Shown: positions 19,927 through 44,191, counted from the first letter of the stretch. The stretch is DNA of 64,000 nt from Acidimicrobiales bacterium (GCA_051985685.1 JBPYFR010000175.1:3495-67494); one strand, 5' to 3'. A program made the numbers and translations. The notes: generated from the letters alone by a model not told the origin.

Positions 19927-22404
19927 GTGAACCTCCTCATTCAGTGGCGGCCATCCCGTTTGCGTAGCCTTGCGACCGCCGTCGGCTCGGGCAGTAACCG
20001 CGCCGTGATCGATGGCGATCCTGCGCGAGGGAACGTGCGCCCTTCCTCTCCTTCTCTTCTGGGAATCGGCCGACCCGCCGGCAACTGGTCGGATGTGGCG
20101 AGTGTCGTTTGGCTCCTCGCGATGGCTCTGGCTGTGCTCGCGCCGGTCCTTGCCCACGGCGCTTCTTTTGGGTCTTACGACGTCCTCTCCCAGTTCGGCG
20201 TCCTTCGTCAACCTGGTGTCGTCGTTCACAATTTTCAGGCCGGAGATCAGTCAGATCAGATCATCCCGTGGGCGACGTTGGCGTGGACACAGGTGCATCA
20301 AGGCCACTTGCCGCTGTGGAACCCCTATGAAGCATTGGGAATGCCGCTCGCCTTCAACTGGCAGACAGCAGCGTTCAGTGTGCCGACTCTGATTGGGTAT
20401 CTGTTTCCGCTGCATCTCGCCTTCACCGTCCAAGTCGTCTTGACCCTGGTCATCGCGGGCACCGGCACGTACGTGCTGTGCCGAGTGTTGGGGCTGGGCA
20501 CGATGGCCTGTGTCTTCGCCGGCACCGTGTTCGAGTTGAGCGGCCCCATGCTGGGGTGGTTGGGTTGGCCGCATGCCGCCGCGCTCTCGTGGTCGGGCTG
20601 GCTGTTCGCTTGCGCTCTGCTGGTCATGAGGGGCCGGCACCGGCTTCGAGACATCACTCTGCTGGCCTTGGTGATCGCGGCCATGGTCTACGCGGGGCAG
20701 GCCGAGATTCTGGTGCTCAGTGCCCTCGCGCTCCTGATCTTCGTCGTCGTGCTCCTCATTCAGCGGGCGCCCATCTTCGGGGCGGCCGGGCCGATCCGCC
20801 GCCCCGTCCTCGACCTCGCCGTCGGGGTCGTCGCCGGTGGCGCCCTCGGTGCTCCGCTCCTGCTCCCCGGCCAACAGGTCGTGTCGGGGTCGCAGCGGGC
20901 CATCCCCGGCGGAGACCCCGCAGAGATCCTCAAGGGGAACCCTGCCCTGCCCTTCCACAACGTGCTGCACCTCCTCTTCCAGGGATTCGACGGGCTGCCG
21001 CTCGCGGGCAGCCATTGGTTCGGCTACATCGGGGGGTACTCCGAAACCGCTGCCTACGTCGGTGTGATCGCACTCGTGCTTGCCGTAACGGGTCTGGCCG
21101 TTCGTCGGAGACGCCCCGAGGTGGTCGCCTTCGCCGTCCTCTGTGCCGCCATGGTCCTGGTGGCCTTCGCGCCGCCGGTGGTGGCGCTCCTGTACCGTCT
21201 CCCGCTCGTCGGAACGGTGTTGTGGCAACGCGCCATTCTCCCGCTCGCCTTCGGCATCGCTGTGCTGGCGGGAATTGGCTTCGATGCCGTCGTACGCGGC
21301 CACGGCGAGCGTTCGGTTCGCCGCTGGGCGGGCGGAGGCTTCGGCGTGGCCGCACTCGTGCTGGTTGCGCTCTGGGCATTCGGCCGGGGCGATCTCCCCG
21401 AGCCTCTGGCCAGCATCAGGGCCGAGAGCTTCATTTGGCCTGCGGTCGGGACCGTCGTGGGCCTGGGTGCGGTCGCAGCACTGACATGGATGCACCGCCG
21501 TTCGAATGCGTCGGAGGATTCGGCCCACGAAAAAGGATGGCTGCGTCCCAACGCGGGACGGCTCGCCGGAGTGTCGTTGTTGGTTTGCGAGACGGCCTTT
21601 CTCGTGGCTGCCGGCGCTCCGCTGTGGACCTCGACCAATGCGCCGTTTGCGTCGACACCGGCCGTCGCCGCGCTCAAGAGCGCCGTGGGGTCGTCGGAGG
21701 TGGGGCTCGGTCAAACGTTGTGCATCCTGCCGCCCGGTCTCGCCATACCCGAGAACGCCCAATTCGCCTACGGGGTCCGGGAACTGGCGATTTACGATCC
21801 GATGATCCCGAGCGCCTACTACTCGTCGTGGCGTGACGTCAGCCGCGAGTCGCCGGGCCTGCCCAACGACTCGGTTTACTGTCCTGGCGTCAACACGGCC
21901 GAACTGGCCCGGCTCTACGGCATCTCGTTCGTACTGGAGCGAGCCGGATCACCGGGACCTCGAGGAGGAGTCTTCGTGAGGACGGTGGGAGATGACATCC
22001 TCTATCGGATCCCGGATGCGAGCGTCGCCACCCTCACCCCCTTGGCCGACGACGGACGGCTACCGGCGGACAACGCTCCGGGCACGCCCGTGGCCGTGTC
22101 CAGTGCTGATCCGTCGTCGTGGAAGTTGGTCACCGACGCCGACCGTCGGCAAGTGCTACGCCTTCGCCTCACCAACATCCCGGGATGGCACGCGACCGTG
22201 GACGGCCAGCCGGTCGCGCTTCGGAGCTTCGCTCGGGTGATGCTCCAAGCCGAAGTGCCCCCCGGGCGCCACACGGTCGAGTTGTACTACTGGCCGGCGA
22301 CGTTCACGACGGGTCTTGTCCTTGCCTCCGTCGCGGTGGGCGGTCTGGCCGGCGCTTTCGTCTACAGCTGGGCCCGCCGCCGTCGGCGACAGCGGGCGCT
22401 CTAG
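19927..22404 (+). CDS. YfhO-family polytopic membrane glycosyltransferase (GT-C fold), paralogue 1
   Basis: GDQSDQIIPWATLAWTQVHQGHLPLWNPYEALGMPLAFNWQTAAFSVPTLIGYLFP, many TM segments, and C-terminal LRLTNIPGWHATVDGQPVALRSFARVMLQAEVPPGRHTVELYYWP. The last matches the YfhO C-terminal pattern as I recall it. The true start may lie downstream, for example near 20093. Confidence 0.8.
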   Translation: MNLLIQWRPSRLRSLATAVGSGSNRAVIDGDPARGNVRPSSPSLLGIGRPAGNWSDVASVVWLLAMALAVLAPVLAHGASFGSYDVLSQFGVLRQPGVVVHNFQAGDQSDQIIPWATLAWTQVHQGHLPLWNPYEALGMPLAFNWQTAAFSVPTLIGYLFPLHLAFTVQVVLTLVIAGTGTYVLCRVLGLGTMACVFAGTVFELSGPMLGWLGWPHAAALSWSGWLFACALLVMRGRHRLRDITLLALVIAAMVYAGQAEILVLSALALLIFVVVLLIQRAPIFGAAGPIRRPVLDLAVGVVAGGALGAPLLLPGQQVVSGSQRAIPGGDPAEILKGNPALPFHNVLHLLFQGFDGLPLAGSHWFGYIGGYSETAAYVGVIALVLAVTGLAVRRRRPEVVAFAVLCAAMVLVAFAPPVVALLYRLPLVGTVLWQRAILPLAFGIAVLAGIGFDAVVRGHGERSVRRWAGGGFGVAALVLVALWAFGRGDLPEPLASIRAESFIWPAVGTVVGLGAVAALTWMHRRSNASEDSAHEKGWLRPNAGRLAGVSLLVCETAFLVAAGAPLWTSTNAPFASTPAVAALKSAVGSSEVGLGQTLCILPPGLAIPENAQFAYGVRELAIYDPMIPSAYYSSWRDVSRESPGLPNDSVYCPGVNTAELARLYGISFVLERAGSPGPRGGVFVRTVGDDILYRIPDASVATLTPLADDGRLPADNAPGTPVAVSSADPSSWKLVTDADRRQVLRLRLTNIPGWHATVDGQPVALRSFARVMLQAEVPPGRHTVELYYWPATFTTGLVLASVAVGGLAGAFVYSWARRRRRQRAL

Positions 22405-22456
22405 GCCCGTTGGAACCAGGGACGAGCCCGAAGAGATCAGGCCCACGATGCACCGA

Positions 22457-23716
22457 CTAGTTGGGACGGGTGCGCACGGGGACCGCCAATCCGGCCTCAT
22501 TGGATGCGTTCGCGGAGGAAGCCGTCAGGCGGTCGCTCGCGTCCGACGCAACGGCAGGGATGAGGACCGGCTTGCTGTACCTTCGCTCTTCCAGTCGCTT
22601 CCCCCACCGCGTGAGTGGGCGTTCCAAAAGGAACCACGACAGGAGGGTGAGGGAAAGGGTGAGCACGATGGCCACGACGACTCGTACGACGTCATTCCAG
22701 TGAGGATCGAAGTGCCGAATGGCGAAGAACACCGGCAGATGCCACAGGTAGAACCCGTAGGAGACGACACCGAGCGCGACCAATGGCTTGAATTCCAAGA
22801 GGTAACGGCCCCCCCATCGACCATCCAGTATCGCCAACAGGAGGGCGGCGACCGCGACGTCAATGGCAAGGAAGCCACCCCAGTAGACGAACGGCCCCTC
22901 CTGCGTTGCGAAGGGCAGGCAGGCCACGAGGAACGCGGCCGCGAGCCATCCCGCAACGACCAACCCCCGCTTCGGTTCTCTGCCGCGCATCCAGATGTGC
23001 GCGAGAAGGCATCCCCACAGAATTGAGTCCGCCCGCGTGTCCGTCCGGTAGAAGAGTGACCACCAGCGGTGCGTGTCTTCGTACGAGATGTACCGATGGA
23101 CGGCAATGAACGTAATCAGCGAGAGCAGTATGATCACGACCGTCCTGAGACGCATTCGGATCGAAAGGAGCGCGATCGTCAACCACGGCCAGATCAAATA
23201 GAACTGCTCTTCGAATGAGAGCGACCAGAGGTGTTGGAACCCCGAAGCGAGATTTGGGCTCAGGGGACTTGTGGCGCTCGCGGTGTAGTAGTTCGAATAG
23301 TAGAAGAGCACCGAGAAGATAGACGGGACTTCGGTGTGCAGCCACTGGTGGCTGAAGTACGCGAAGAGGGCGCTTGCGAGCACGACCACATAGAGGGCTG
23401 GAAGCAGCCTCAGCGCTCGACGCCGGTAGAAGGGCCCGATCCCAATCCTTCCGCGCCGAGCTTGCTCCTTCAGGAGCAACGCGGTGATGAGAAAGCCGCT
23501 CAGGACGAAGAAGGAGTTGAGCGATACCGTCGCTCCCGGGATCACCAGGAGGGTCGGTATGGGGAGAATGACATCCATGTGCGCAACGAAGACGATGAGC
23601 AGGGCTATCCCTCGCAGCCCGTTGAATCCGGGCACATCGCCGAAGCTGCGCGGCGGCTGGAGGGGTGCGGGCGCACCCGGACGACCCGAGCCGTCTGTGT
23701 TTAAGGTGTCCTCCAT
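22457..23716 (-). CDS. Acyltransferase family 3 (OafA/YrhL-type membrane O-acyltransferase)
   Basis: FNGLRGIALLIVFVAHM, FFVLSGFLIT, FYRRRALRLLPALYVV, LWSLSFEEQFYLIWPW. Confidence 0.9.
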   Translation of the reverse strand: MEDTLNTDGSGRPGAPAPLQPPRSFGDVPGFNGLRGIALLIVFVAHMDVILPIPTLLVIPGATVSLNSFFVLSGFLITALLLKEQARRGRIGIGPFYRRRALRLLPALYVVVLASALFAYFSHQWLHTEVPSIFSVLFYYSNYYTASATSPLSPNLASGFQHLWSLSFEEQFYLIWPWLTIALLSIRMRLRTVVIILLSLITFIAVHRYISYEDTHRWWSLFYRTDTRADSILWGCLLAHIWMRGREPKRGLVVAGWLAAAFLVACLPFATQEGPFVYWGGFLAIDVAVAALLLAILDGRWGGRYLLEFKPLVALGVVSYGFYLWHLPVFFAIRHFDPHWNDVVRVVVAIVLTLSLTLLSWFLLERPLTRWGKRLEERRYSKPVLIPAVASDASDRLTASSANASNEAGLAVPVRTRPN

Positions 23717-23858
23717 GCCCCTGCTTCCCCACCAGGCTGTCCGCGGCTCCGCTGCGAATCTGCCACAATACAGCCCGATTCGCTGACGAGGCCTTGCGGG
23801 GGTGACGGAACGCCGACACGGGAGTCTGTCAGGCTAGGGCGTGCTGTCCTGCCAATTC

Positions 23859-23887
23859 GGTGCCGGTGGGGGGGGACGTGCGGCACC
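23859..23887. promoter_or_regulatory. Inverted repeat GGTGCCG-N15-CGGCACC whose loop contains a G8 homopolymer (23868-23875), in the divergent acyltransferase intergenic region
   Basis: Read directly from sequence. No function is known. Confidence 0.5.
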
Positions 23888-24037
23888 TTTCGCTCGGGCC
23901 TGAGTCCTCGGTATCGAGACCCGCTGCGCAGGCTGGATCAACGCCCCTGATGTCTTTTGAGATTGGTATGTTGCTGTCCCCTCGGTACGTGTTGCTGTTT
24001 CTTTGGGACATCACTTCGTAAGGCTGAGAGCGCGGGA

Positions 24038-25291
24038 ATGAGCACTGACCACCAACCGAGCATCGCTTCGCGTGAGCCCGCCGCTGCCGTGCCAGCTGCT
24101 TCCGCGCCCGCCGTGCCCGCCATCCCATACGAACCACCCGAGATGAACGAGGCCTCGACCCCGGCCCCGACCCGCCCCTTCTCCCTGGGGAACCGCCCGG
24201 CGCTCACCGGCCTCCGGATCGTCATTCTCGCGCCGGTAGTGATCTTTCACTTCAATTACGGAACGATCTTTCCGGGTTGCTGGGCGTCCCTGTCGGTGTT
24301 CTTCGTTCTGAGCGGTTTCCTCATCACCACCATGTTGGCGGGTGAGCATCAGCGGTCGGGGCGGATCAGCCTCAATAGGTTCTACTCCCGCCGGGCAGTC
24401 AGGCTGCTTCCACCTCTCTTCATCACCGTGTCCCTTCTTGCGGTGTATGCCGCGTTCGTCAGCGTGGCGAACGCTTCGCAGCGGATCTGGGGTGACAGCG
24501 CAGCCGCCCTCTTCTACTATGCGGACTACCGTCAAGCGTTCCCTGCAAATCCCCTGTACGGGGGGTTCCTGACCCAGTGCTGGTCGTTGGCCGTAGAGGA
24601 GCAGTTCTACCTGATTTGGGCCGTGCTGCTCGTGGTCGCACTTAAGTTCGGGCATCGCAAGCTCTGCTACATCCTGGCCATTGCCGGAATCGTCATATGC
24701 ACTGCGGATCGCGTCTACATCGTTCTCAGTGCCGCGCATTGGAACATTTTCGTGGCCGACCGGACATACTTCGCGTTCGACACCCGTGGTGACGCACTCT
24801 TCCTCGGTTGCCTGCTCGGTCTCATCGCTACGGGCAACCACCTTGAAAATTGGAGGCCGGTCGCGAAGCGAGCTCTGGCAATCGGGGCTCTCCTCTCGGC
24901 TGTCGTGATGATTTGGGTCGTCTTCAACGTCGGCCTCTACGACCGATCGCTACCTCTCCTTTGGGTGTCCGTGACCGAAGTTGCTTCGCTGATCATCATC
25001 ACGTACTTCATCATTCATCCGAAGGGACTCGGGACGAGAGTGATGGGTCTTTCGGTGTTGGTGCTCTTCGGCAACATGTCGTACACCATCTACCTCATGC
25101 ATTGGCCTGTTTTCGTGGCTTTGAGTCCGTCGACGACCCATTGGTCGTACTGGGAGCTCGATGTCGTCCGGATGGCGATCGTCATAGCGCTGGCGTTGGC
25201 CAGCTGGTACTGGATGGAGAAGCCACTGACGAGATGGCGACGCCGATCGCACGACACGACCCGCGCGGCCCAGCCGGCGATGGCTGCCTAG
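24038..25291 (+). CDS. Acyltransferase family 3 (membrane O-acyltransferase), second copy, divergent from the first
   Basis: Part of ORF 23957..25291, starting at ATG 24038. LTGLRIVILAPVVIFH, FFVLSGFLITT, FYSRRAVRLLPPLF, CWSLAVEEQFYLIWAV. Confidence 0.9.
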   Translation: MSTDHQPSIASREPAAAVPAASAPAVPAIPYEPPEMNEASTPAPTRPFSLGNRPALTGLRIVILAPVVIFHFNYGTIFPGCWASLSVFFVLSGFLITTMLAGEHQRSGRISLNRFYSRRAVRLLPPLFITVSLLAVYAAFVSVANASQRIWGDSAAALFYYADYRQAFPANPLYGGFLTQCWSLAVEEQFYLIWAVLLVVALKFGHRKLCYILAIAGIVICTADRVYIVLSAAHWNIFVADRTYFAFDTRGDALFLGCLLGLIATGNHLENWRPVAKRALAIGALLSAVVMIWVVFNVGLYDRSLPLLWVSVTEVASLIIITYFIIHPKGLGTRVMGLSVLVLFGNMSYTIYLMHWPVFVALSPSTTHWSYWELDVVRMAIVIALALASWYWMEKPLTRWRRRSHDTTRAAQPAMAA

Positions 25292-25337
25292 TGGGATCTC
25301 AGCGAGAATCAGCGTTCGTGGTGATCGAGAAGAACGT

Positions 25338-27905
25338 GTGAGTCTCTCTATGGTTCAGCACCAACCTTTTCGGGGCCCTCTGTTCTCGGTTCGGGAGGCG
25401 CTCGGAGTGCGTGAGACCGGAACAGCGAGCCAGGTGGGGGAGCGCGTACAGCACGAGTCCCGTCGGCAGAGGGGCTGGCGCGTGAGCCCGCAACGCACTG
25501 TTCCTCACATCCTCGGATTGGCTTGGGTCGTGGGTGCCGCGATCGTGACGCTTGCACCGGCCCTCCACCACGGACTCTCGCTGGGTCCCTATGACATCTT
25601 GACGCAGTCCGGCCTCACTCGGGTTCCCGGCGCCAGCGTTCGCAACACCGTCAGCGGAGATCAGATCGCAGAGATGATCCCGTGGTCCTCGCTCGCTTGG
25701 AACCAGGTTCACCACGGCCACATACCCCTGTGGAACACCTATACCGGCCTGGGCCTCCCCCTTGCGTTCAACTGGCAGTCGGGAGTGTTCAGCCTGCCAG
25801 CACTGATCAGCTACATCCTGCCCCTCCAGCTCGCCTACAGCGCGCAGATCGTCGTCACGCTGGTCATCGCGGGATCAGGCGCATATGTGCTTGCACGCGT
25901 CCTCGGGGCCGGAGTGCTGGGATGCGCGACGGCCGGAACGGTGTACGAGCTCAGTGGCTCGTTCATGGGATGGCTCGGTTGGCCCCACGCGGCCGTGATG
26001 TCTTGGGCCGGATGGCTCTTCGCCGTGGCCATTCTCATCGTTCGAGGACGCCATCGCGTCCGCTACATCGTCGCGTTCGCTGTCCTCGTCGCTCTGGCTC
26101 TGTATGCCGGCGAGCCAGAGATCTTCACGATGCTGGTCGTCTCCCTCATCGTCTTCACTCTGACGACGTTGATCTCGAATCGAAGAGCGGGAGAAGGTCA
26201 GGGACGCTCCCTGCGCCCTCTGGTGGATTTGTCCTTTGCAGCGCTGGCCGGGGCCGCCCTGGCCGCACCTCTGGCACTGCCCGGTCTGCAGGTGCTCACG
26301 GGGTCGACCCGCAACAATGGAACACTCTTCTCCTCGACCGAGGTGGCGAGAGCCCTGCCCCCGCACGACCTTGTGCATCTGCTCGTCCAGGGTTACAACG
26401 GCCTGCCGCTGGCCGGGAGCATGGTCTTCGACGACGCGGTGTACATGGACACGGCCACGTACGTCGGGCTGATCGCTCTCGCTCTCGCCGTGCTCGGAGT
26501 CTTCCGTCACAGACGCCGACCGGAGACCATCGGGTTCGTTGTGTTGGCCTTGGTGACCTTGGTCATCGTCTACGCGCCACCGGTCCAGCCGTTGTTCGAC
26601 CGGATCCCGCTGGTCCAGACAATCGACTGGCACCGCGATCTCATGATTGTGGGTCTGTGCGCCGCAATCCTGGCCGGTCTGGGCATGGATGCGCTGGTCC
26701 GAACGAGTTCATGGAAGTCGACCCAGCTCATCTTGGCGGGCGTGCTCGCCGGCGGTCTCGTGTTGCTCCTCGTGCTCTGGGTGGCGGACACCTCGGGCCT
26801 CTCTACGCTCGACGCCCGGCTCCGCAGGGACAGTCTCCATTTGCCTCTGCTGACCACCGGATTGGCCCTCGTCGTGGTGACAGTCCTCGCAGCGTGGACC
26901 TCGAGAGCGGCGTCACGGCGGTCCCAGGAAGCCGGCGCCGGACGCAACTCGGTGGGGGCTCTGAGCCCGGGTGACGGTATTCCGGGCGAGAGCGGGCTGT
27001 CGCGGATGCGCCGGCCTTCCGCCGGGCATGTGACGGCAGCACTGCTCCTCCTCCTCGAGACTTCGTTCCTCGTGGCCTCGGGCGCACCCCTGTGGTCGTC
27101 CAACGCGAACGGCGTCCAAGCGACCCCAGCTGTGAAGACACTCGTCCATGCTGTTGGTGCTTCGAGGGTTGGTTTCGGCGCCTTCACTTGCTACGCAGGA
27201 CCCGCGCTGACGAGGCTGGGTGTTCTCCCCGAGTCCAACAGTCTGTTCGGTCTCCACGAGTTCGACTTCTACAATCCGATCCTTCCGCGCGGCTTCTTCC
27301 AATCGTGGCGTGGTGTGAGCGCAAGCTCGCCCGGGGTTCCGATTTACAACTCGTTCTGCCCGGCCTTGACGTCAGCTGCCCAAGCGCGTCGCTTTGGGAT
27401 CCAGTTCGTTCTGGAGCCGGTGGGCGCCCCGGCCCCGAAGGGGGCAGTTTTCGACGAGAAGATCGCCGACGAAGATCTCTATCGGATCCCGGACTCGGCC
27501 GAAGCAGAGCTCGTCCCGCCCACCTCGGCCGGCCATCAAACCTCGACTGATACGTCGGTTGTCCCGGTCACTGTGGAACACCCCTCACCCTCCTCGTTGC
27601 GCATCACCACCTCGAGCACGAGTGATCAGGTTCTCCGTTTGCACCTGACCGACGTGCCCGGGTGGCACGCCACTCTCGACGGACGCCCGTTGCAGCTCGA
27701 GCGATTCGGGGACGTGATGTTCCAAGCTCGGATTCCCGCTGGGCACCACGTCATTGAGCTGCACTACTGGCCGACCCTCTTCACAGTTGGACTCATCCTG
27801 GCCGCAGTCGCGCTCGTCGCGCTCGTTGCGCTGGTGATCGTCTCGGCGCTTCGCCGTCGTGCCGGCGCAGGAATCGAGGCGACGATCGATTCACCAGCGA
27901 TCTAG
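25338..27905 (+). CDS. YfhO-family membrane glycosyltransferase (GT-C), paralogue 2
   Basis: GDQIAEMIPWSSLAWNQVHHGHIPLWNTYTGLGLPLAFNWQSGVFSLPALISY and C-terminal LRLHLTDVPGWHATLDGRPLQLERFGDVMFQARIPAGHHVIELHYWP. The start is uncertain. Confidence 0.8.
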   Translation: MSLSMVQHQPFRGPLFSVREALGVRETGTASQVGERVQHESRRQRGWRVSPQRTVPHILGLAWVVGAAIVTLAPALHHGLSLGPYDILTQSGLTRVPGASVRNTVSGDQIAEMIPWSSLAWNQVHHGHIPLWNTYTGLGLPLAFNWQSGVFSLPALISYILPLQLAYSAQIVVTLVIAGSGAYVLARVLGAGVLGCATAGTVYELSGSFMGWLGWPHAAVMSWAGWLFAVAILIVRGRHRVRYIVAFAVLVALALYAGEPEIFTMLVVSLIVFTLTTLISNRRAGEGQGRSLRPLVDLSFAALAGAALAAPLALPGLQVLTGSTRNNGTLFSSTEVARALPPHDLVHLLVQGYNGLPLAGSMVFDDAVYMDTATYVGLIALALAVLGVFRHRRRPETIGFVVLALVTLVIVYAPPVQPLFDRIPLVQTIDWHRDLMIVGLCAAILAGLGMDALVRTSSWKSTQLILAGVLAGGLVLLLVLWVADTSGLSTLDARLRRDSLHLPLLTTGLALVVVTVLAAWTSRAASRRSQEAGAGRNSVGALSPGDGIPGESGLSRMRRPSAGHVTAALLLLLETSFLVASGAPLWSSNANGVQATPAVKTLVHAVGASRVGFGAFTCYAGPALTRLGVLPESNSLFGLHEFDFYNPILPRGFFQSWRGVSASSPGVPIYNSFCPALTSAAQARRFGIQFVLEPVGAPAPKGAVFDEKIADEDLYRIPDSAEAELVPPTSAGHQTSTDTSVVPVTVEHPSPSSLRITTSSTSDQVLRLHLTDVPGWHATLDGRPLQLERFGDVMFQARIPAGHHVIELHYWPTLFTVGLILAAVALVALVALVIVSALRRRAGAGIEATIDSPAI

Positions 27906-33687: not shown

Positions 33688-35877
33688 TCAGTGGCCTTGG
33701 GTCAGGCTCCGGCACAACGTCATGGGTGCGCTCTCTGTCACGGCCCACTGCGCGACATAGTCCCTTGACGAGTGAACGGGGATGTTGGCGACGGTCACCG
33801 CGGGGGGTGCCGAGCCCGGCGATTGCGTGGTGGAAGTCACAACGGCTGGACCGTCACCGGCCACGTAGTGGTTGACCATGTTCGGAGAGCCGTACCACGA
33901 CACGACGAGTGAATTCAGGTTGGGGTCGATCGTCACGACCAGTTGAAGCTGCTCGTGGTTGCGAACTTCCGTGTCGGTGATGGGAAATGGCCATCCCGCG
34001 GGCGACGGCCAAGTCTTCGCGGAGATGCCCGAATTGTAGAGATCTAGTCGCACGAAATCAGGGTGGCCATTGACCCTGGCGCGTTCCACGACGAGCCTGC
34101 TCTTTCCGTAGGTCATGAGCGTCGCAGGTTGGGTGAGGTTGCGAGCTGGACGGTTGAAGGTGAACCCAATGACATGGGTGAACGCTGGGGATTGCTCGAC
34201 CGGCTTCCACGTGTAGTGCTCGTCGTATTGACCGGGAACGTACTTAATGGCGTTGCCGGTCGAAAGGTAGAGGCCCGAGCAGTGGTTCACGGCGAAGAGC
34301 TGCCCCGCCGGTCCCCAATAGGGAAGGCTGGGCCCTTGCCGCACGCTGTTCGCAAGGGAACCGATGCTCAGTGACTTCGCCACGGAGACGAACCGCGCGC
34401 TCTGGGCGACCGTCCACTGGGTTACGGGGAACGCGGCGATGGCTAGATTCGCCGCGATGCAGTAGACGCCAACCGTCGCGAGAGTGCCGAGGGCGAGGCC
34501 CCTGATCCGCTGAGGGCGGTTCTCCAGACGGCGCCACATGTCGATCAGGCCGATGCCGGCGGCGATGATGAACAAGGGCATCAGATCGGCCAAGTATCGC
34601 TGCGAGATGTATCCCCACAGCAACACCCCGCCGGCGCCCGCGGCGGCTCCGAAAAAGATGATCCGGGTCAGCTGCACCTGCCCGACGCCCCGCGGCCGGA
34701 AGGCGGTGACCGCACCCCATAGGCCGAGCAGGAGGAGCAGAGGGCTCGTGTCCGTGAAGCTCGCGGTCGGGTACGACTGGTCGAGCACCGCACCGGCGAG
34801 CCACGGCGCGGGACCCCCCGGCGGACTGAAGAACGGGAACAATCCTCCGAGACGCATGCCGAGGGGCTGGAAGTAAGCCGAAAGGCTGCTGGGCAGGAAT
34901 GCGAAATTGAATGCCTTCCCACCGTTGGCGGCCAGGAAGTAGCGGCGGTGGTAATTGACCTTGGCCCAGTACTCGTCGGCCATCGGAAGGCCGATCGGAA
35001 TGCCGAACTTGGCGTAGGTCACGACACAGCCAATGAGGAATGGGACGACGCCGACGGCCAGCATCGGTAAGGCCCAGCGCCTATTGGAGACGCCGCCCCG
35101 TCCCAGTGCGAACCATCCCGCGATGAGAACGGCTGCGATAGTGCAGCCCCAACCGGGCGGGATGCGGTTGAGACTTGTGCAGAGGATGAGCACGCCGCTG
35201 GCAACCACGCGTCCCCACGTCGGCCGTTCGAGAACGCCGAGGAGGGCGAAGAGGCTGCCGACGGTGAGCGCGATGCTCCACGCAAAGTCCTCGTTGTAGA
35301 TGAAGGGAGTTGCCGCCAGGTAAAGGACGACCGAACCACCCATGATGGTGGCCATGAGGGTCCCATAAGCCGCCGACTCCGCCCGTCCGAGCAACGCGTC
35401 TCCGCGCATGAGAAGACGGAGGCGCCAGAGCATCAATGAGCTGAAGACCGCGGTCGCAACCCAAGCCAGAAGGATGGAGGGTGCTGTCATCTGACCATCG
35501 AGCCTGCTCGTCACGAGCAGAATGGGCATCCGGATGATGGACGGGAACAAGCCGAAGTACGTGTAATCGTGTCCAGCGTGACGGAAGGCTTCGATACCCA
35601 TCCTCCCGGGAGGCAGGTAGAGGTGGCCATGAAACAGCGCTCTTGCCTGTAGGTCGTAGAAGTTGGCGTACGGGACGGCCCGCAACGGGTTCAACGACCC
35701 AGACCACAGGTCCCACTGCAGCCAGAGGAACAACGGCAGGGTGATTGCAGTGCCGACGATGACCGCGACGACGAATCGCCGTCGGCTCAGTTCGGCCGGC
35801 GACCGAAGGCGCGGTTGAGGCTCATCCGTCGGCAGCGCCTCGCCGGCGGACAGATCTGGTTCTGTTATGACCGCCAT
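33688..35877 (-). CDS. Polytopic membrane protein (roughly 12 TM by eye) with a roughly 230-aa C-terminal non-membrane domain; putative unclassified GT-C-like transferase, paralogue A
   Basis: NFYDLQARALFHGHLYLPPGRMGIEAFRHAGHDYTYFGLFPSIIRMPILLVTSRLDG, then many hydrophobic segments, with a hydrophilic C-terminus containing WGPAGQLFAVNHCSGLYLS. About 50 percent identical by eye to the product of 38925..41009. I do not recognise the family. Confidence 0.6.
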   Translation of the reverse strand: MAVITEPDLSAGEALPTDEPQPRLRSPAELSRRRFVVAVIVGTAITLPLFLWLQWDLWSGSLNPLRAVPYANFYDLQARALFHGHLYLPPGRMGIEAFRHAGHDYTYFGLFPSIIRMPILLVTSRLDGQMTAPSILLAWVATAVFSSLMLWRLRLLMRGDALLGRAESAAYGTLMATIMGGSVVLYLAATPFIYNEDFAWSIALTVGSLFALLGVLERPTWGRVVASGVLILCTSLNRIPPGWGCTIAAVLIAGWFALGRGGVSNRRWALPMLAVGVVPFLIGCVVTYAKFGIPIGLPMADEYWAKVNYHRRYFLAANGGKAFNFAFLPSSLSAYFQPLGMRLGGLFPFFSPPGGPAPWLAGAVLDQSYPTASFTDTSPLLLLLGLWGAVTAFRPRGVGQVQLTRIIFFGAAAGAGGVLLWGYISQRYLADLMPLFIIAAGIGLIDMWRRLENRPQRIRGLALGTLATVGVYCIAANLAIAAFPVTQWTVAQSARFVSVAKSLSIGSLANSVRQGPSLPYWGPAGQLFAVNHCSGLYLSTGNAIKYVPGQYDEHYTWKPVEQSPAFTHVIGFTFNRPARNLTQPATLMTYGKSRLVVERARVNGHPDFVRLDLYNSGISAKTWPSPAGWPFPITDTEVRNHEQLQLVVTIDPNLNSLVVSWYGSPNMVNHYVAGDGPAVVTSTTQSPGSAPPAVTVANIPVHSSRDYVAQWAVTESAPMTLCRSLTQGH

Positions 35878-35885
35878 GTCCCGCC

Positions 35886-36761
35886 CTAGCCTTGGGGGCC
35901 CTTTCGCTGGATGCGGTCGCGATACCCGAGGACCTTGCTGGCCAATTCATCGGAGATCCCGAGGTGCCGCTTGGCCCAGTCATAGCCTCGCAGAATCTGT
36001 TTGTCCGCGAAGATGAGGAATGAGCGCGCCCCATCGCCCGGTCGAGGTCGATACTCCGTTGAGCGGACCATCGGGTCCTTCTCGACGCTGAAGTAGTAGA
36101 GCGCCAGGGAACGCCGCATCACACCCTCCGGGCAGCGCATCGGCTCTGGATGGCCGTGGAAGGACGTGGGATCGGTCGTGAAGATCACAGCCCTGTTCTG
36201 GACCGGCCTGATCTTCTGGACGCACCGCTTCATGTCGGTGCTCCACAATTCGAGGTCGCCGCCGTACTCGGGATCCCAGTCATCGTTGAGGTAGAGGATG
36301 ATGTTGGCTCGACGCTGCCACGTCCGATTGTGGGGGTGGACGGTGAAGTCAGCGTGGATGTTGAGAAAGCCTCCCCTCGTCGACTGGTGGAGACCGCCGC
36401 CCTCGAGCGACGGATCAGCGATGAGATCGTCCTGGCCGAGAAGATTGCCGATGAAGCGCACGAAGCGGAGGGAGTTCAGCTCTTCGAGGATGCGTTGCAG
36501 GGTCGGACCCCAGGACGTTGGATCGGTGTTGCTGAACTTCCGCTCGTTGACGTGGAGGTAGTTGGTCCATCGCGCCGGGTCGAGAGTGGGAAACTCGGCG
36601 ATCGCGGCTTCTGCCGCACGCGGTTCGAGGAATTCGTCGATCACGATGTGGGGATAGGGGTCGGCCGCCTGGTATTCGGCATGCAAGTGCTCGACGTCGC
36701 GCTCCAATGCCGTCAAGTCGAGCACGGGCAACGGCATCTCGGTCTCTGGCTGGAGGGTCAT
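35886..36761 (-). CDS. 2-oxoglutarate/Fe(II)-dependent oxygenase superfamily protein
   Basis: GGFLNIHADF (HxD), ANIILYLNDDWDPEYGGDLELW, FHGHPEP (distal His), NRAVIFT. This is the pattern of 2OG-FeII_Oxy_3 / prolyl-hydroxylase-like domains. Confidence 0.8.
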   Translation of the reverse strand: MTLQPETEMPLPVLDLTALERDVEHLHAEYQAADPYPHIVIDEFLEPRAAEAAIAEFPTLDPARWTNYLHVNERKFSNTDPTSWGPTLQRILEELNSLRFVRFIGNLLGQDDLIADPSLEGGGLHQSTRGGFLNIHADFTVHPHNRTWQRRANIILYLNDDWDPEYGGDLELWSTDMKRCVQKIRPVQNRAVIFTTDPTSFHGHPEPMRCPEGVMRRSLALYYFSVEKDPMVRSTEYRPRPGDGARSFLIFADKQILRGYDWAKRHLGISDELASKVLGYRDRIQRKGPQG

Positions 36762-36803
36762 CTCGAGTTCGTCCCTCCAGGTGTCGTTACGGGCATCTGA
36801 GGA

Positions 36804-37841
36804 TTACCTCCCGACCGGGACTGGTGTCCGTCGCGCGCTGAAGCTGGCGATCAGGGCCCGAGTAAGGAAGAGGACATAGCCGTGCGAGAGAACTTCGGCG
36901 TGCCGAGTGAAGAGATCGGTCTGGCTCAGCCGGCGATGCAATTCCTTAAGACCCCGGTACGGGATGGTGGGAAGGACATGGTGCTCGAAGTGGTACTCCA
37001 TTCTGGCCCCCACGAGGTGATTTTGCAGCCAGCCGGCGTAGCTGGTCCGAGCGACCCAGTTCACTGAGTTCGGCTCACGAAGGCCCGTATCGTAGTGCTC
37101 GGCGATCGTCTTCAGACGAAGAATCATCGGGTACAAGCACACGATCGGCACGATCCAGAAGACCATGTAGAAGAGGATCCCCCGTAGAACCCCCTGAAAG
37201 AGAACGAACTGGCCGAGGACGATCACTTGGGTGATGACCTTGCCCGCGAGCAGCCGTGGTTTCGCGAGCAAGCTCGGAGGTGCACCAGATACCTGGGACG
37301 TGCCTGAGAGCCGCGTCGTTGCCCGCCGGAAGGCCGTCACCCCCAGGAGATCTTGTAGCAGGAGTACCGTCAGTGCACCACGTCGATATGGGACGAAGTA
37401 GAACACCCGATCCGGATCACGCTCCTGTCCCAGATAGCGATGGTGGAGGCGGTGGGTGGGACGGTATTCCTCGACGGAATTGATCGTCCAGAAGGCGATG
37501 CCCCAGTTGCAGATCCGGTCGTTCAGCGTCCGCGACTTGGCCAGCAAGCCGTGTGACCCTTCATGCAGGATCACGCCGTAGGCATTCATCCTCAGACCGA
37601 GCAAGAGGACCAACACCACCCCGATCGGTATCGACCAGGCCAAGGGCAAGCGAGGGAGGAGGTTGGCGCAGGTGAGGAGAACGGCCACTTCGAGCCACAA
37701 CACCCCGATTGCCGCGAACGTGTCGGGCAACGACTGCTGTGAAAGCGACTGGAGCTCGTCCGTGCCCACCAGTTGCGCGAGCTGCTCGCGCCAAAGACGT
37801 TCGTTGTCGAGCGAAGCCTCTTTCCCTGGTTGCAACGCCAT
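36804..37841 (-). CDS. Membrane fatty-acid desaturase/hydroxylase family di-iron protein
   Basis: Three His boxes: HEGSH, HRLHH and HFEHH, plus hydrophobic helices. ATG 37841 is preceded by GGGAGGG; TTG 37862 is the alternative start. Confidence 0.85.
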   Translation of the reverse strand: MALQPGKEASLDNERLWREQLAQLVGTDELQSLSQQSLPDTFAAIGVLWLEVAVLLTCANLLPRLPLAWSIPIGVVLVLLLGLRMNAYGVILHEGSHGLLAKSRTLNDRICNWGIAFWTINSVEEYRPTHRLHHRYLGQERDPDRVFYFVPYRRGALTVLLLQDLLGVTAFRRATTRLSGTSQVSGAPPSLLAKPRLLAGKVITQVIVLGQFVLFQGVLRGILFYMVFWIVPIVCLYPMILRLKTIAEHYDTGLREPNSVNWVARTSYAGWLQNHLVGARMEYHFEHHVLPTIPYRGLKELHRRLSQTDLFTRHAEVLSHGYVLFLTRALIASFSARRTPVPVGR

Positions 37842-37924
37842 CGCCCGAGGCCCTCCCCCCAACCGAATCCACCGAATGTACAGTACCCGTCAAACGACAA
37901 TCAATCGGGCAAAGGACCAGCGTA

Positions 37925-38914
37925 GTGGAGTCGCCACCGAGCGCAGATGCAGGGACTCGCCCCGCTCAGGGCGTGGCGGACGGGGACGGAGCTGAGGCAA
38001 GACGCTGCCCGATCTGTGGCTCCGCCACCACGTGGCTCTACCGGACCGACGTCGCTGATCTGGAGTACTTCGTCGTCCCGCCCCGCCCGTTCGCCATGCA
38101 GAAGTGCGGGGACTGTTCATCGGAGTTCCTGACGCCACGTCCTCTCGAATCGGAGCTCCCTCCCTTCTATCCGAGCGATTACCACGCCTACAACGAGAAC
38201 CACAGTGGAGTCGCCCGGCTCCTGGTGCAGTTCCGGGCCCGGTCCCGGGCCCGGTTCTATGGTCGCCTCATCGGGAGCCGTTCCGGCCGAATCTTCGACG
38301 TCGGGACCGGCGATTGCCGCCACTTCGACGAGCTTCGCCGCTTTCTCGACCTCGAGTGCGCAGGTGTGGAGATCCAGTCGGACGTCGCCGCCAAGGGGAG
38401 GGCGAGGGGATACGACGTCCTGGAGGGCACCCTCGAGACAGCGGACTTGACCGATCATGCGGGACGATACGACATCGTCTCCATGAATCACATCCTCGAA
38501 CATGTGGTCTCACCCCGCACCATGCTCGAACGCGCCTTCGATCTCCTGCGGCCCGGTGGACACGTCATCGGCCAGTTGCCCACTGTCTCGTCCTGGGAGA
38601 ACAAGTTGTTTGGCCACAATTGGGGTGGCTACCACTACCCGCGGCACCTGCAAATCCCATCAAAGGCCGGTCTGAAGGGCCTTCTCGAAGACGTTGGATT
38701 CTCCTCGATCAGCGTGCGGTCGGCGCCCCACATCCAGACGACGATCTCGTTGCAGAACACGCTTGTTCGGCGCGGCTGGCATCCCGAGATGCGCAATGGC
38801 AAGACGCCGGCTTACGGCGCGCTCCTCGTCGCCGCGCTTCCTTACGAAACGGTCGCGTGGCTGTGCGACGAAGGCGGTATCGTCAACTTCCGAGCCCAAA
38901 AGGGCAGTTCCTGA
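37925..38914 (+). CDS. Class I SAM-dependent methyltransferase with an N-terminal Cys4 zinc-ribbon
   Basis: Part of ORF 37709..38914. CPICGS...CGDCSS, then IFDVGTGDCRHF, YDIVSMNHILEHVVSPRTML, GGHVIGQLP. The start is uncertain (GTG 37925 or 37973), because the long ORF would overlap the divergent desaturase gene. Confidence 0.8.
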   Translation: MESPPSADAGTRPAQGVADGDGAEARRCPICGSATTWLYRTDVADLEYFVVPPRPFAMQKCGDCSSEFLTPRPLESELPPFYPSDYHAYNENHSGVARLLVQFRARSRARFYGRLIGSRSGRIFDVGTGDCRHFDELRRFLDLECAGVEIQSDVAAKGRARGYDVLEGTLETADLTDHAGRYDIVSMNHILEHVVSPRTMLERAFDLLRPGGHVIGQLPTVSSWENKLFGHNWGGYHYPRHLQIPSKAGLKGLLEDVGFSSISVRSAPHIQTTISLQNTLVRRGWHPEMRNGKTPAYGALLVAALPYETVAWLCDEGGIVNFRAQKGSS

Positions 38915-38924
38915 CCCGCTTCGC

Positions 38925-41009
38925 TCAGTGAATCAGGCTTTCACAGAGGGCCGGACGCGGTGAGTGCTCCTGGCTCACCTGCAGAGCCCTTGGTGTGCCT
39001 TGGGACGCTGTCGTGGTGGAAGCAACCCGGATCGGTTCCTCGTTTGTCATCGTGGTCGCCAAGAGCGTCACTCCGTCGATGCTCGCTGCGAACTGGTGCT
39101 TGACCGCATCCGTCGTCACTGTCACCGTATGCGCGCTCCGGGAGTCGACCTCGTATGAGATGCCGCCGGCGAGGGGGCTGGCTCCGCGGTAGAGGCTGAA
39201 CGTCAACGAGACCCGATGTGGATCCGTCGTCGGCGCCGCGTTCATGCGCAACGTGTCCTGGCCAGCATTCACCAGTGGAACCGACGCCACCCCTGCGGTC
39301 GGGCTCTTCACCGTTATGTGGAAATCGTGCTGGAACGCTGGACCAAGTTGGACGGTCATCCAAGTTGTGCGCTGGAACTGCTCGCTCGGTACGGTCGAAT
39401 AGTTCTCCCCGTTCGACACGTACAGCCCATCGCAGTCTCCGACGACGTACAACTGTCCGGCCGGCCCCCAGGGAGGCAGTGCGCTCGCACGTACCACCTT
39501 CGCCTGCAACGGGTGCCCGGTGAGATCGCTCACGCTCTTTTGGCCCTCGACATAGTTGAGGACTTGCGTCGTGGTCCACTCCTCGTTGGGGGCGACTGCC
39601 ATCCCGACGTTTGCCGCGATGCTGAAGACGGCCCCCACCGTCAGGATGCCCACGGCCGCCGCGCGCACCGAACGCCGCCGCCCTTCCAGACGACGGAAGA
39701 TGTCGGCCGTCGCCACCGCACTGGCCAGCACGATGAACGGCACGAAATCACCCAGGTACCTCGGCGAGATGTAGCCCCACAGCATCAGGGCGGCGGCGGC
39801 GCCCCCAGCGGCCAACAGCAGCAGGCGCGTGCGCGCAACCTGTCCGACCGCCCGGGGACGAAAGGCCGTCACGAGGCCCCAGGCGCTCAGCAGGAAGAGC
39901 AGCGGCGTCGAAGCCGGAAGGCTTGCCGTCCGGTACAGCCGGTCGAAGAGCACGCCACCAACCGCCGTGGGTGGGCTTGCAGGCAGGGTGATGAACGGAA
40001 AGACGCGGCTGAAGCTGAGCCCATCAGGACGAAAGTAGGTGACGAGGTTGGTCGGCACGAAGATGACGCCTTCCTCGGCATTGTGGTTGGCGGCTAGGAA
40101 CCTCTGTCGATAGGCGTTCATGTGCGTCCAGACCTGCTCGGCGTTCGAGACCCCGAACAGGACACCGAATTTGGCGTAATTGACGGCGCACGAGATGACC
40201 ACGGGTATAAGGCCTGCCGCAAAGACAGGGACGAACCAGCGGCGATTGTCTCGCCCACCAAGGCCGAACAGGAACCACACCGAAATCAGGCCGGCGGCCA
40301 CGGCACAGGCCCAGCCCGTGGTTGCGCGGTCGAAGTTGGCACACAAAATCAGCACGCCGCTGGCTACCACCCGGCCCCACGACGGCCGCTCGACCACGCC
40401 GAGGAGGGCGAAGATGCTCCCCAGAGTCAGGCAGATGCTCCACGCGATGTCCTCGTTGAAGACGAAGGGAGTTGCTGCGAGCAGCATCCAGATCGTCCCG
40501 CCCATCACCGTGGCTATCAGGACTCCGAACCCAGCGGCCTCCATTCTGCTCATGGGGGAGTCGCCGCGAACGAGGAACCGAACTCGCCACAGCAGCAGGG
40601 ACGAGAACAAACCTGTCAACAACCAGGCCAGCAGTATGTATGGCGCGTTGAGCTTGCCATCCAGGCTGCTGGTCACCAGGAGCACCGGCATCCGGATGAT
40701 CGATGGAAACAGGCCGAAGTACGTGTACGTGTGCCCGCCGTGCACGAATCCCTCGAGGCCGATGGCTCCGTTGGCCAGATACAGATGGCCATGGAACATG
40801 GCGCGGGCCTGAATATCGAAGAAGTTGCCTTCGTAGGCGGTGGCGCGCACCGCAGAGGTGGGGCCCCAATCCGACCAGAGGATCCAGACGAAGGGAACGG
40901 CGGTGAGGCCGATGGCGATCAGCGCAGCCCAGGTGAATCGACGTCGGCCAGCGTCGATCTCCGACCGCGGCGGGGCTTCCTCGATCGTTGCGGTGTCCGG
41001 CGCAGACAT
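38925..41009 (-). CDS. Polytopic membrane protein with a C-terminal non-membrane domain; putative unclassified GT-C-like transferase, paralogue B
   Basis: ORF 38925..41132. GNFFDIQARAMFHGHLYLANGAIGLEGFVHGGHTYTYFGLFPSIIRMPVLLVTSSLDG and C-terminal WGPAGQLYVVGDCDGLYVS. ATG 41009 (MSAPDTAT) gives an N-terminal length matching paralogue A; GTG 41132 is the alternative start. Confidence 0.6.
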   Translation of the reverse strand: MSAPDTATIEEAPPRSEIDAGRRRFTWAALIAIGLTAVPFVWILWSDWGPTSAVRATAYEGNFFDIQARAMFHGHLYLANGAIGLEGFVHGGHTYTYFGLFPSIIRMPVLLVTSSLDGKLNAPYILLAWLLTGLFSSLLLWRVRFLVRGDSPMSRMEAAGFGVLIATVMGGTIWMLLAATPFVFNEDIAWSICLTLGSIFALLGVVERPSWGRVVASGVLILCANFDRATTGWACAVAAGLISVWFLFGLGGRDNRRWFVPVFAAGLIPVVISCAVNYAKFGVLFGVSNAEQVWTHMNAYRQRFLAANHNAEEGVIFVPTNLVTYFRPDGLSFSRVFPFITLPASPPTAVGGVLFDRLYRTASLPASTPLLFLLSAWGLVTAFRPRAVGQVARTRLLLLAAGGAAAALMLWGYISPRYLGDFVPFIVLASAVATADIFRRLEGRRRSVRAAAVGILTVGAVFSIAANVGMAVAPNEEWTTTQVLNYVEGQKSVSDLTGHPLQAKVVRASALPPWGPAGQLYVVGDCDGLYVSNGENYSTVPSEQFQRTTWMTVQLGPAFQHDFHITVKSPTAGVASVPLVNAGQDTLRMNAAPTTDPHRVSLTFSLYRGASPLAGGISYEVDSRSAHTVTVTTDAVKHQFAASIDGVTLLATTMTNEEPIRVASTTTASQGTPRALQVSQEHSPRPALCESLIH

Positions 41010-41215
41010 AGCGCGTTCGATCGAGGCGTCCGAACTCCCCTTGGGGGGAGCAACTTGAACGGAACTGCCAGTACCCTCCCCCACGGCGCAGGAGTGTAGC
41101 GAAATGGAGTCCATCCCAACGATCGCCACCACCCTGGCCGTGACGCCTCGAAATGGGGTTTGCCGATGACACGCGCCGGGGCGGTGTCGCTGCTCACGGA
41201 GTAGCCTCTCGCGCC

Positions 41216-41719
41216 ATGAAGACAGCCCTGGTCCGGCTGTGGCGCCGTTGTCAGACCCCCCAGGGATTGAAGCTCATCCGCTACTCGATGGTGTCGGTGA
41301 TCTCCGCGCTGACCTCGCTGGTGATCCTGACCATCATCTTTGGGGTGCTGCGTCTGTGGGGCGAGGTCGTGAGCACCCTCGTCGCGAACATCCTGGCGGG
41401 CATTCCGTCTTACTATCTCAACAGGCAGTGGGTGTGGAAGAAGTCGGGGCGGTCCCATATCTGGAGAGAGCTGCTCCCGTTCTGGGTGATGTCGATAACC
41501 GGCATCCTTTTCGCACTCTTCACGGCCTCGTTGGCGCGCAACTTCGCGAACACACACCATCTGGAGCATTTGGCCCGCACCGTCCTGGTCGTGGGAGCCA
41601 ACATCACCGCCTTCGGCATCCTGTGGGTTCTCAAGTTCCTCATCCTCAATCGGCTGTTCGCAGAGATCGCCGACGCCGAGGTCGGGGCTGAAGAGCCGGA
41701 GACCGCTGACAACCGTTAA
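41216..41719 (+). CDS. GtrA-family small membrane protein (putative polyprenyl-phosphate-sugar flippase)
   Basis: Part of ORF 41153..41719. LIRYSMVSVISALTSLVILTIIFGVL...VANILAGIPSYYLNRQWVWKK, four TM segments, 167 aa. Confidence 0.85.
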   Translation: MKTALVRLWRRCQTPQGLKLIRYSMVSVISALTSLVILTIIFGVLRLWGEVVSTLVANILAGIPSYYLNRQWVWKKSGRSHIWRELLPFWVMSITGILFALFTASLARNFANTHHLEHLARTVLVVGANITAFGILWVLKFLILNRLFAEIADAEVGAEEPETADNR

Positions 41720-41749
41720 GTAGAGAGTCCGGTCAGCATCTTCACGACT

Positions 41750-44191: not shown

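Follow-up and report, generated by a model that had tools for sequence, protein, structure and literature searches.

Introduction

The closest described counterparts of the system studied here are the CsbB/GtcA/YfhO systems of Bacillus subtilis, Staphylococcus aureus and Listeria, together with the Csd/CflA system of Lactococcus lactis, which combine a family 2 glycosyltransferase (GT2) bearing two C-terminal transmembrane (TM) helices, a GtrA-type protein and a GT-C glycosyltransferase (PMC8035078, PMC5836110). Some components are shared in these systems, Listeria GttA being one GT-A enzyme for two GT-C enzymes and L. lactis CflA one flippase for three GT-A/GT-C pairs (PMC8035078). The same three kinds of genes occur in a 64-kb stretch of DNA from an uncultured soil Acidimicrobiales bacterium (Acidimicrobiia, Actinomycetota; GCA_051985685.1, JBPYFR010000175.1:3495-67494), hereafter called the window, within a glycan locus spanning about 47 kb. 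The window holds one GtrA gene, one GT2 gene with TM helices and four paralogous YfhO-like GT-C genes, here named Y1 to Y4. Unlike the Firmicutes systems, it belongs to an Acidimicrobiales host and gathers four Y genes and three GT-C genes of other families in one locus. This is probably a cell-envelope glycan locus whose set of YfhO-like GT-C enzymes shares one or two donor pools.

Streptococci provide a second point of comparison. As in the present locus, the Pgf and GtrB/PgtC2 systems associate a YfhO-domain GT-C enzyme with a GT2 donor synthase, and the Pgf cluster likewise contains two YfhO-type paralogues, PgfM1 and PgfM2. There, YfhO-type GT-C enzymes glycosylate Ser/Thr-rich protein regions, and the adhesins that serve as substrates of the Pgf system are encoded within its own cluster (bioRxiv 10.1101/2024.05.05.592596).

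The mycobacterial and corynebacterial GT-C sets (EmbA/B/C, AftA-D, PimE and Mpt, with Ppm1/PpgS donors) come from the same phylum, provide the best structural matches and similarly set many GT-C enzymes on one or two polyprenyl-phosphate-monosaccharide donors. In mycobacteria, many GT-C enzymes use a single donor. In Shigella and Salmonella, gtrABC and oac bring together the GtrA flippase, a GtrB-type GT2, a specific GT-C enzyme (GtrC) and Acyl_transf_3 O-acetylases, the gtrABC cassettes being phage-borne and made of three genes with one GT-C each. The present locus has the same assortment of GtrA, GtrB-type GT2, GT-C and Acyl_transf_3 genes but is chromosomal and counts seven GT-C genes. Our literature searches turned up no publication that deals with YfhO-type proteins from Actinobacteria or with the envelope glycans of Acidimicrobiia.

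Four full-length paralogues with GT-C hallmarks

The Y genes lie at the following positions.

19927-22404, + strand: Y1, YfhO-like GT-C glycosyltransferase, 825 amino acids (aa)
25338-27905, + strand: Y2, YfhO-like GT-C glycosyltransferase, 855 aa
27902-30271, - strand: Y3, YfhO-like GT-C glycosyltransferase, 789 aa
41750-44191, + strand: Y4, YfhO-like GT-C glycosyltransferase, 813 aa

A first-pass annotation, made by a model from the sequence alone, had called four open reading frames (ORFs) at these coordinates, and all four were recovered; the start of Y1 possibly lies about 36 codons further downstream than 19927. The four proteins are paralogous over their full length (40-47% identity, BLASTP E = 0) and, judging from these alignments, their similarity is far beyond chance. 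A six-frame phmmer search of the window retrieved exactly four Y copies.

Hydropathy gives 13-15 segments in the Y proteins and, combined with an AlphaFold model, points to about 13-14 TM helices, an extracytoplasmic domain of about 225 aa and a final TM helix, which is followed by an Arg-rich tail. In the AlphaFold2 (AF2) model of Y1, helices extend to residue 566, an alpha/beta and beta-sandwich domain covers residues 567-790 and the final TM helix residues 791-824. This arrangement is the one reported for B. subtilis YfhO, which has about 13 TM helices, the last two of them flanking a large extracytoplasmic domain (PMC5836110).

Two motifs are common to all four proteins. The N-terminal one, H(Q/H)G(H/F)(L/I)PLWN(P/T)(Y/D)x(A/G)LG(M/L)PLAFNW(Q/E)(S/T), sits in extracytoplasmic loop 1 and had been proposed in nearly this form, needing only the small corrections of (Q/H) after the first H and (A/G) before LG. 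The C-terminal one, LRL(H/R)L(T/A)(D/N)(V/I)PGWHAT(V/L/I)DG(Q/R)P, was also present as announced, save that its fourth position accepts H or R only and not the T that had been listed. In GT-C enzymes, the catalytic acidic residues are located in extracytoplasmic loop 1. The loop-1 residues D107, W120, H124, P129, W131, G138, P140 and L141 are invariant in 125-126 of the 126 aligned family members; D107 occurs in 125 of them, the remaining sequence having a gap at this position, and D85 in 108. Y1-Y4 have conserved acidic residues in the first extracytoplasmic loop after TM1, as GT-C enzymes do, and keep all the invariant loop-1 residues, D107 included. From this conservation we infer a catalytic role for D107 and D85. 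The Y proteins would transfer sugars from polyprenyl-phosphate-linked donors.

A GT-C fold and a YfhO-like C-terminal module

The Y proteins had been recognised as members of the YfhO family. Like the Firmicutes enzymes, all four carry a YfhO C-terminal module above the Pfam cut-off (PF09586, whole-protein scores of 43.5, 58.9, 52.0 and 38.4 bits for a gathering cut-off of 28.5), and PF09586 is carried by all 120 listed Y homologues save one truncated protein. The match is limited to the last 60-80 residues (profile positions ~755-834 of 835), and the recognition stands for this part of the proteins only. The best NCBIfam matches are PgfM2 and PgfM1, again over the last ~57-62 residues only and with 16-31 bits against cut-offs of 1400-1500. 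A Bacteroides protein annotated as 'YfhO family protein' behaves in the same manner: its Pfam YfhO match is C-terminal only, and hhalign aligns it with the Y profile over the last ~200 residues only, with a probability of 96%. These C-terminal-only matches imply that the database YfhO label rests on the PGW(H/Q)AT(I/V)DG module and the last TM helix. Here, 'YfhO family protein' therefore designates a short C-terminal module and should not be taken as 'teichoic-acid glycosyltransferase'.

The structural comparison suggested by the first-pass annotation was used for the membrane part. With the AlphaFold model of Y1 (pLDDT 81.6, pTM 0.86) as a query, Foldseek retrieved AftD (1.8e-7), ArnT (1.2e-6), AftA, EmbA/B/C, STT3, AglB, DPY19 and Pmt4 from the PDB. 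All 12 PDB matches with E <= 1e-3 are GT-C enzymes, as are those ranking just below, and no non-GT-C protein of the PDB matched with E < 0.1. The predicted structure thus shows a GT-C fold, while the YfhO identity remains confined to the C-terminal module.

Many YfhO-labelled proteins form a separate YfhO-like GT-C family, described as component 27 'YfhO-like' within the STT3/PglB/YfhO glycosyltransferase superfamily (Durairaj et al., Nature 2023, PMC10584680). Its members are polytopic proteins of bacteria which the databases label 'YfhO family' and which cluster apart from true YfhO. The Y proteins can be likened to them by description only, the median length of component 27 being 665 aa against ~800 aa for Y1-Y4. 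We consequently file Y1-Y4 as YfhO-like GT-C enzymes, their membership of the canonical YfhO family being weakly supported.

Candidate donor synthases and flippases

Two genes for candidate donor synthases and three for further membrane proteins accompany the Y genes.

30451-31386, - strand: GT2 of ArnC/GtrB/CsbB architecture (GT-A domain and two C-terminal TM helices), candidate polyprenyl-phosphate-sugar synthase
16682-18118, - strand: GT2 fused to an S-adenosylmethionine (SAM) methyltransferase, second candidate polyprenyl-phosphate-sugar synthase
41153-41719 (alternative start 41216), + strand: GtrA-family small membrane protein (Pfam GtrA_DPMS_TM, E 3e-12), putative lipid-linked-sugar flippase
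44376-45251, + strand: polytopic membrane protein of ~291 aa, weakly DMT/EamA-like (called from codon-position GC (GC1/2/3) and translation)
45100-45879, + strand: DedA/VTT-like membrane protein (Pfam VTT_dom, E 8e-6, 26.8 bits against a cut-off of 33.9)

The single GT2 with C-terminal TM helices and the single GtrA-family protein were both announced by the first-pass annotation and were found as described. The former adjoins Y3 on its upstream side, and its only PDB relatives are ArnC, with an alignment that runs through the TM region. The GtrA gene lies directly upstream of Y4. Each Y gene had also been presented as the distal gene of its own transcription unit. This agrees with the orientation, and with the orientation only, of the genes around Y1-Y3, Y3 being the last gene of a six-gene minus-strand run; Y4 is followed on the + strand by the DMT-like, DedA-like and PMT_2 genes and is therefore not distal. 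Promoter and terminator scans found no more sites than in shuffled sequence and were uninformative on transcription units.

The possibility that the GT2-methyltransferase fusion supplies a second donor has gained in substance. Its glycosyltransferase domain resembles archaeal dolichyl-phosphate-mannose (Dol-P-Man) synthase, AglJ and PpgS, and the gene is divergent from a unit made of Y1 and the g18349 gene described below. We followed gene linkage in 77 related loci, each comprising +/-10 kb around a Y gene; as these come from related genomes and overlap in some cases, the counts given here and below are not independent and have a descriptive value, and the glycan locus itself is longer than the 10-kb flanks. 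Strong orthologues of the fusion adjoin Y genes in about 12 related loci, a recurrence that distinguishes this partner from those of the Firmicutes systems, and orthologues of the TM-bearing GT2 are present in 15. The association of several Y genes with a single donor-type GT2, as first proposed for the window, recurs elsewhere: 12 of the 18 loci with at least three Y genes hold exactly one such GT2, against 8 of the 46 single-Y loci, and no related locus has more than one.

The DMT-like protein matches Pfam EamA (E 3e-4) and TMEM234 (E 1.5e-3), and could be a second lipid-linked-sugar flippase. The first-pass annotation had missed this gene, which is concealed by a longer ORF on the opposite strand, 44283-45458(-); we discarded the latter as an antisense artefact of high GC, codon-position GC and translation supporting 44376-45251(+) instead. 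The DedA/VTT-like gene is flanked by the DMT-like gene and the PMT_2 GT-C gene. Undecaprenyl-phosphate flippases have been reported in the DedA family (PMC9876793, PMC10127716), which makes this protein a candidate for recycling polyprenyl phosphate after GT-C transfer.

Three further GT-C genes

The inventory of four transferases turned out to be incomplete, as three further genes of the locus encode proteins with a GT-C fold.

33688-35877, - strand: Z1, GT-C-fold membrane protein of an unannotated family (AF2 and Foldseek)
38925-41132, - strand: Z2, paralogue of Z1 (43% identical), forming with it a pair of ~730-aa polytopic proteins
46102-47733, + strand: PMT_2-family GT-C glycosyltransferase (Pfam PMT_2, E 4e-10, above cut-off)

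Z1 and Z2 have no match in Pfam or NCBIfam, and none of the 875 homologues of the Z family has a precomputed Pfam domain or a functional name. The AF2 model of Z1 (pLDDT 77.3) retrieved only GT-C enzymes, namely AftA (7e-6), STT3, AglB, DPY19, PimE, ALG9 and ArnT. By hhalign, the Y and Z profiles are unrelated, and the sole PDB match of the Z profile by sequence was judged to be due to chance. On the strength of the model, Z may constitute an undescribed GT-C family. Seven GT-C-fold genes of three families (Y1-Y4, Z1, Z2 and PMT_2) are thus assembled in ~28 kb, and the picture of four transferases served by one donor gene and one flippase gene understates the sharing, since the same genes would also serve the two Z proteins and the PMT_2 protein.

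Such an abundance of GT-C genes of three families for two donor-synthase candidates brings to mind the mycobacterial Emb/Aft/Mpt enzymes, and the seven proteins might build a branched extracytoplasmic glycan sugar by sugar rather than decorate one. The affiliation of the organism to the Actinomycetota, the best structural matches (AftD, AftA and EmbA/B/C for Y1, AftA for Z1) and the radiation of the Y family into at least 12 deep clades would all fit with this proposal. However, the GT-C enzymes in the PDB are few and many of them are mycobacterial, so that the rank order of the matches says little on function. The ABC-2 exporter and cytoplasmic glycosyltransferases listed below already give a backbone route, and no arabinose or decaprenyl-phosphate-sugar pathway genes were found among the Pfam-scanned ORFs of the window. 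The mycobacterial GT-C sets also differ in that they share no sequence homology with the Y proteins (10-16% identity in structural alignments) and possess a different C-terminal module, and no arabinogalactan or mycolate context is found here. We consider extracytoplasmic assembly by the seven enzymes unlikely.

Distribution and age of the Y copies

The closest relatives of the Y proteins all come from metagenome-assembled uncultured Acidimicrobiales and Acidimicrobiaceae. Close homologues number more than 1,000; in a full HMMER scan of clusters formed at 50% identity, the Y profile matched 2,119 at E <= 1e-30 and 43,020 at E <= 1e-3. Three to five full-length Y copies lie within +/-10 kb in 18 of the 77 loci, while per assembly the count, which is a lower bound, goes up to six, with at least three copies in 21 of 49 assemblies. 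Multi-copy Y sets are thus common in Acidimicrobiales, and the four-fold expansion, of which the first-pass annotation knew no description, is not exceptional but general in this order, and ancient.

The proposed phylogeny, meant to separate recent from ancient duplication, points to the latter. In a neighbour-joining tree of 126 sequences, the Y family divides into at least a dozen deep clades, and Y1, Y2, Y3 and Y4 belong to four different ones, each with orthologues from other genomes. This separation implies that the duplications are ancient and that each copy was retained. The orthologues of Y1-Y4 are 50-78% identical across species, which indicates a long-term purifying selection on each copy. 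Gene order is also preserved: the succession of g18349, Y1, two Acyl_transf_3 genes, Y2, Y3 and GT2 is kept in five related loci (L001, L002, L003, L008 and L009). The search for conserved synteny was positive from g18349 to GT2 and far less so for GtrA, as discussed below.

On other aspects, the Y regions are variable. Copy number and order of Y genes change among related genomes, four loci (L011, L028, L031 and L052) present arrays of four to six Y genes within 22 kb, in tandem or convergent, and several loci contain split Y ORFs, possibly the result of frameshifts or assembly errors. The GC content is 0.62-0.66 in the glycan locus (positions 16000-48000) and 0.67-0.715 in its flanks. Lower GC is often seen in variable surface-polysaccharide loci. 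The Y copies could then be largely redundant or partly inactive components of a variable surface-antigen region, diversified for instance under phage pressure, with one or two copies of importance in any given strain; the lower GC, the changing number and order of the Y genes and the split ORFs would agree with such a scenario. It is difficult to reconcile with the four Y genes of the window being intact and full-length and keeping every invariant residue of the family, and with the purifying selection that the cross-species identities of 50-78% indicate for each copy. We regard redundancy as very improbable.

The surrounding glycan genes and a possible exported partner of Y1

The remainder of the locus is composed of the following genes.

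517-1479, + strand: ABC-2 type (Wzm/TagG-like) permease of an ATP-binding cassette (ABC) transporter (Pfam ABC2_membrane, E 1e-12)
1463-2677, + strand: ABC transporter ATPase, Wzt/TagH-like partner (Pfam ABC_tran, E 8e-18)
2726-3718, - strand: cytoplasmic GT2 without C-terminal TM helices (Pfam Glycos_transf_2, E 2e-26; hydropathy)
6747-8714, + strand: asparagine-synthase-type (AsnB-like) amidotransferase (Pfam Asn_synthase, E 4e-111, plus GATase domains)
8524-9921, + strand: cytoplasmic GT2 glycosyltransferase (Pfam Glycos_transf_2, E 4e-13)
11199-13997, - strand: WbsX-family glycosyltransferase with a methyltransferase-like C-terminal segment (Pfam Glyco_tran_WbsX, E 4e-132)
13316-14410, - strand: DegT/DnrJ/EryC1 sugar aminotransferase (Pfam, E 1e-99)
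15402-16565, - strand: GNAT N-acetyltransferase (Pfam Acetyltransf_1 and related families)
18349-19842, + strand: g18349, protein exported by twin-arginine translocation (Tat), with the signal RRQLLGASLGLVGTGWA
22457-23716, - strand: Acyl_transf_3 membrane O-acyltransferase (Pfam, E 5e-29)
23957-25291, + strand: Acyl_transf_3 membrane O-acyltransferase, paralogue of the former, 33% identical (Pfam, E 2e-20)
31467-33683, - strand: 738-aa fusion of an unannotated N-terminal part and a C-terminal methyltransferase (Pfam Methyltransf_23, residues 514-664)
35886-36761, - strand: 2-oxoglutarate (2OG)-Fe(II) oxygenase (Pfam 2OG-FeII_Oxy_3, E 2e-18)
36804-37862, - strand: membrane di-iron FA_desaturase-family enzyme, hydroxylase-like (Pfam, E 1e-29)
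37709-38914, + strand: SAM methyltransferase (Pfam Methyltransf_23, E 2e-19; GC at third codon positions, GC3)

In total, three GT2 genes without TM helices are found upstream. Residues 699-784 of the WbsX-family protein resemble the methyltransferase part of the 16682-18118 gene, whereas the N-terminal ~450 residues of the 31467-33683 protein have no match. Methyltransferase fusions are thus found in three glycan proteins (16682-18118, 11199-13997 and 31467-33683) and a fourth, stand-alone methyltransferase is encoded at 37709-38914; these four domains suggest a heavily methylated product. The best NCBIfam match of the FA_desaturase-family enzyme is the arginine hydroxylase GntB (E 8e-26, below cut-off). 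The 2OG oxygenase, FA_desaturase and methyltransferase genes co-occur with Z, GtrA and GT2 genes in related loci L005, L007 and L044, and partly in L041 and L009.

Some gene calls were discarded. The 5' extension of a 667-aa DegT ORF is non-coding (GC3 of 0.54 against 0.88 for the gene), and the ORFs 18003-19436(+) and 38104-38931(+) are non-coding frames by codon-position GC, the latter overlying the real gene 37709-38914. The downstream flank (including 48799-51134(-), 51165-52136(-) and 54263-55549(+)) encodes enoyl-CoA hydratase, AMP-binding acyl-CoA ligase, phosphotriesterase-family and Nuo51/NuoF-like proteins, which have no apparent connection with the glycan locus. Between 52 and 64 kb, several large ORFs have no Pfam match.

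The g18349 protein has no match in Pfam, NCBIfam or the PDB. Its homologues, only about 106 in number, are 44-96% identical, and it lies beside Y1-clade genes in 13 of the 77 loci. Accessory subunit, enzyme and acceptor are all conceivable roles for it. In one alternative reading, Y1-Y4 would be protein O-glycosyltransferases similar to PgtC2/PgfM1 that move sugars from polyprenyl-phosphate donors onto exported or membrane proteins, with the Tat-exported g18349 as a dedicated substrate or partner. Such a role has a precedent in the YfhO-type GT-C enzymes that act on Ser/Thr-rich proteins (bioRxiv 10.1101/2024.05.05.592596), and it would agree with PgfM2 and PgfM1 being the best NCBIfam matches, albeit at the C-terminus only, and with the Tat signal of g18349 and its retention beside Y1-clade genes in 13 loci. 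Considered as a Ser/Thr-rich glycoprotein substrate, however, g18349 was rejected: it is well conserved and, on inspection, has no long Ser/Thr-rich stretch or disordered tail of this kind. A neighbour of the g18349 type is moreover found in the Y1 clade only, and the context is one of polysaccharide synthesis and export (ABC-2, GT2s, WbsX, aminotransferase, Acyl_transf_3). In contrast to the streptococcal Pgf cluster, the similarity to PgfM1/PgfM2 covers just ~57-62 residues, and the present locus revealed neither adhesin genes nor genes for Ser/Thr-rich substrates. Protein glycosylation by the Y enzymes is, in our opinion, a doubtful explanation.

A model for the locus

We favour a scheme in which the Y enzymes act on an envelope glycan from shared donors. 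The GT2 and WbsX glycosyltransferases would build a backbone in the cytoplasm, together with an amino-sugar pathway (DegT, GNAT and AsnB-like), and the ABC-2 transporter would export it. On the cytoplasmic side of the membrane, the two GT2 enzymes at 30451-31386 and 16682-18118 would load single sugars onto polyprenyl phosphate. The lipid-linked sugars would then be flipped by GtrA, and perhaps also by the DMT-like protein, and Y1-Y4, Z1, Z2 and the PMT_2 protein would transfer them to acceptors outside the membrane. The two Acyl_transf_3 enzymes and several methyltransferases would add acyl and methyl groups, and the DedA-like protein may return the freed carrier lipid. Teichoic acid as an acceptor is suggested by analogy only, while the surrounding genes suggest a polymer that leaves the cell through an ABC transporter; with this probable acceptor, which is no known teichoic acid, the locus would again differ from the Firmicutes systems. 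Each Y copy is most likely active, with its own specificity for an acceptor site or a linkage and with one or two donor pools in common. This specificity of position or linkage is suggested by the long retention of each clade and by the intact loop-1 residues.

Several observations weigh against this scheme. Outside the last ~60-80 residues, Y1-Y4 show no similarity to Pfam YfhO or to NCBIfam PgfM1/PgfM2, so that their membrane domain, unlike that of the Firmicutes enzymes, has no YfhO similarity detectable with hidden Markov models (HMMs). A search of the PDB by sequence with the Y-family profile gave no match either and, taken with the missing full-length HMM match, renders the assignment to YfhO proper weak. 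The Foldseek TM-scores of Y1 are modest (0.3-0.5), in the manner expected when distant GT-C families are compared. A donor-type GT2 is present within 10 kb in only 26 of the 77 related loci, and physical linkage between Y genes and GT2 is thus frequent but not obligatory. GtrA appears in only 3 of the 77, beside 2OG-oxygenase, GT2 and Z genes, a number that an iterative HMM search in the 77 loci left at 3; in these relatives it is linked to the Z/2OG-oxygenase/GT2 module and not to the Y genes. In known systems, GtrA genes frequently lie apart from their partner genes. For the DedA-like and DMT-like proteins, the Pfam scores fall below the cut-offs, the related loci are not independent of each other, and the case as a whole is built on sequence and predicted structure.

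Concluding remarks

All parts of the locus belong to known kinds, and the known mechanism is left unchanged. The lineage-wide radiation of the Y family, the unannotated Z family and the exported partner of Y1 are undescribed details rather than a new principle. A bolder proposal, speculative and in our view rather unlikely, would be that the Y and Z radiations, the Tat-exported partner and the GT2-methyltransferase together assemble a heavily methylated and acylated extracytoplasmic heteroglycan that is a major envelope polymer of Acidimicrobiia, with Z as an undescribed GT-C family and g18349 as a new GT-C accessory subunit. If true, this heteroglycan would be the counterpart of mycobacterial arabinan or mannan, made via a different, YfhO-like branch of the GT-C enzymes.

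The practical impact is modest, as the mechanism is known and the organisms are uncultured. The Z family and the exported partner of Y1 nonetheless give the curation of protein families two concrete targets. Both soil and water harbour abundant Acidimicrobiia, and the present locus suggests that they use the familiar route of lipid-linked sugars and GT-C enzymes with an unusually large enzyme repertoire.

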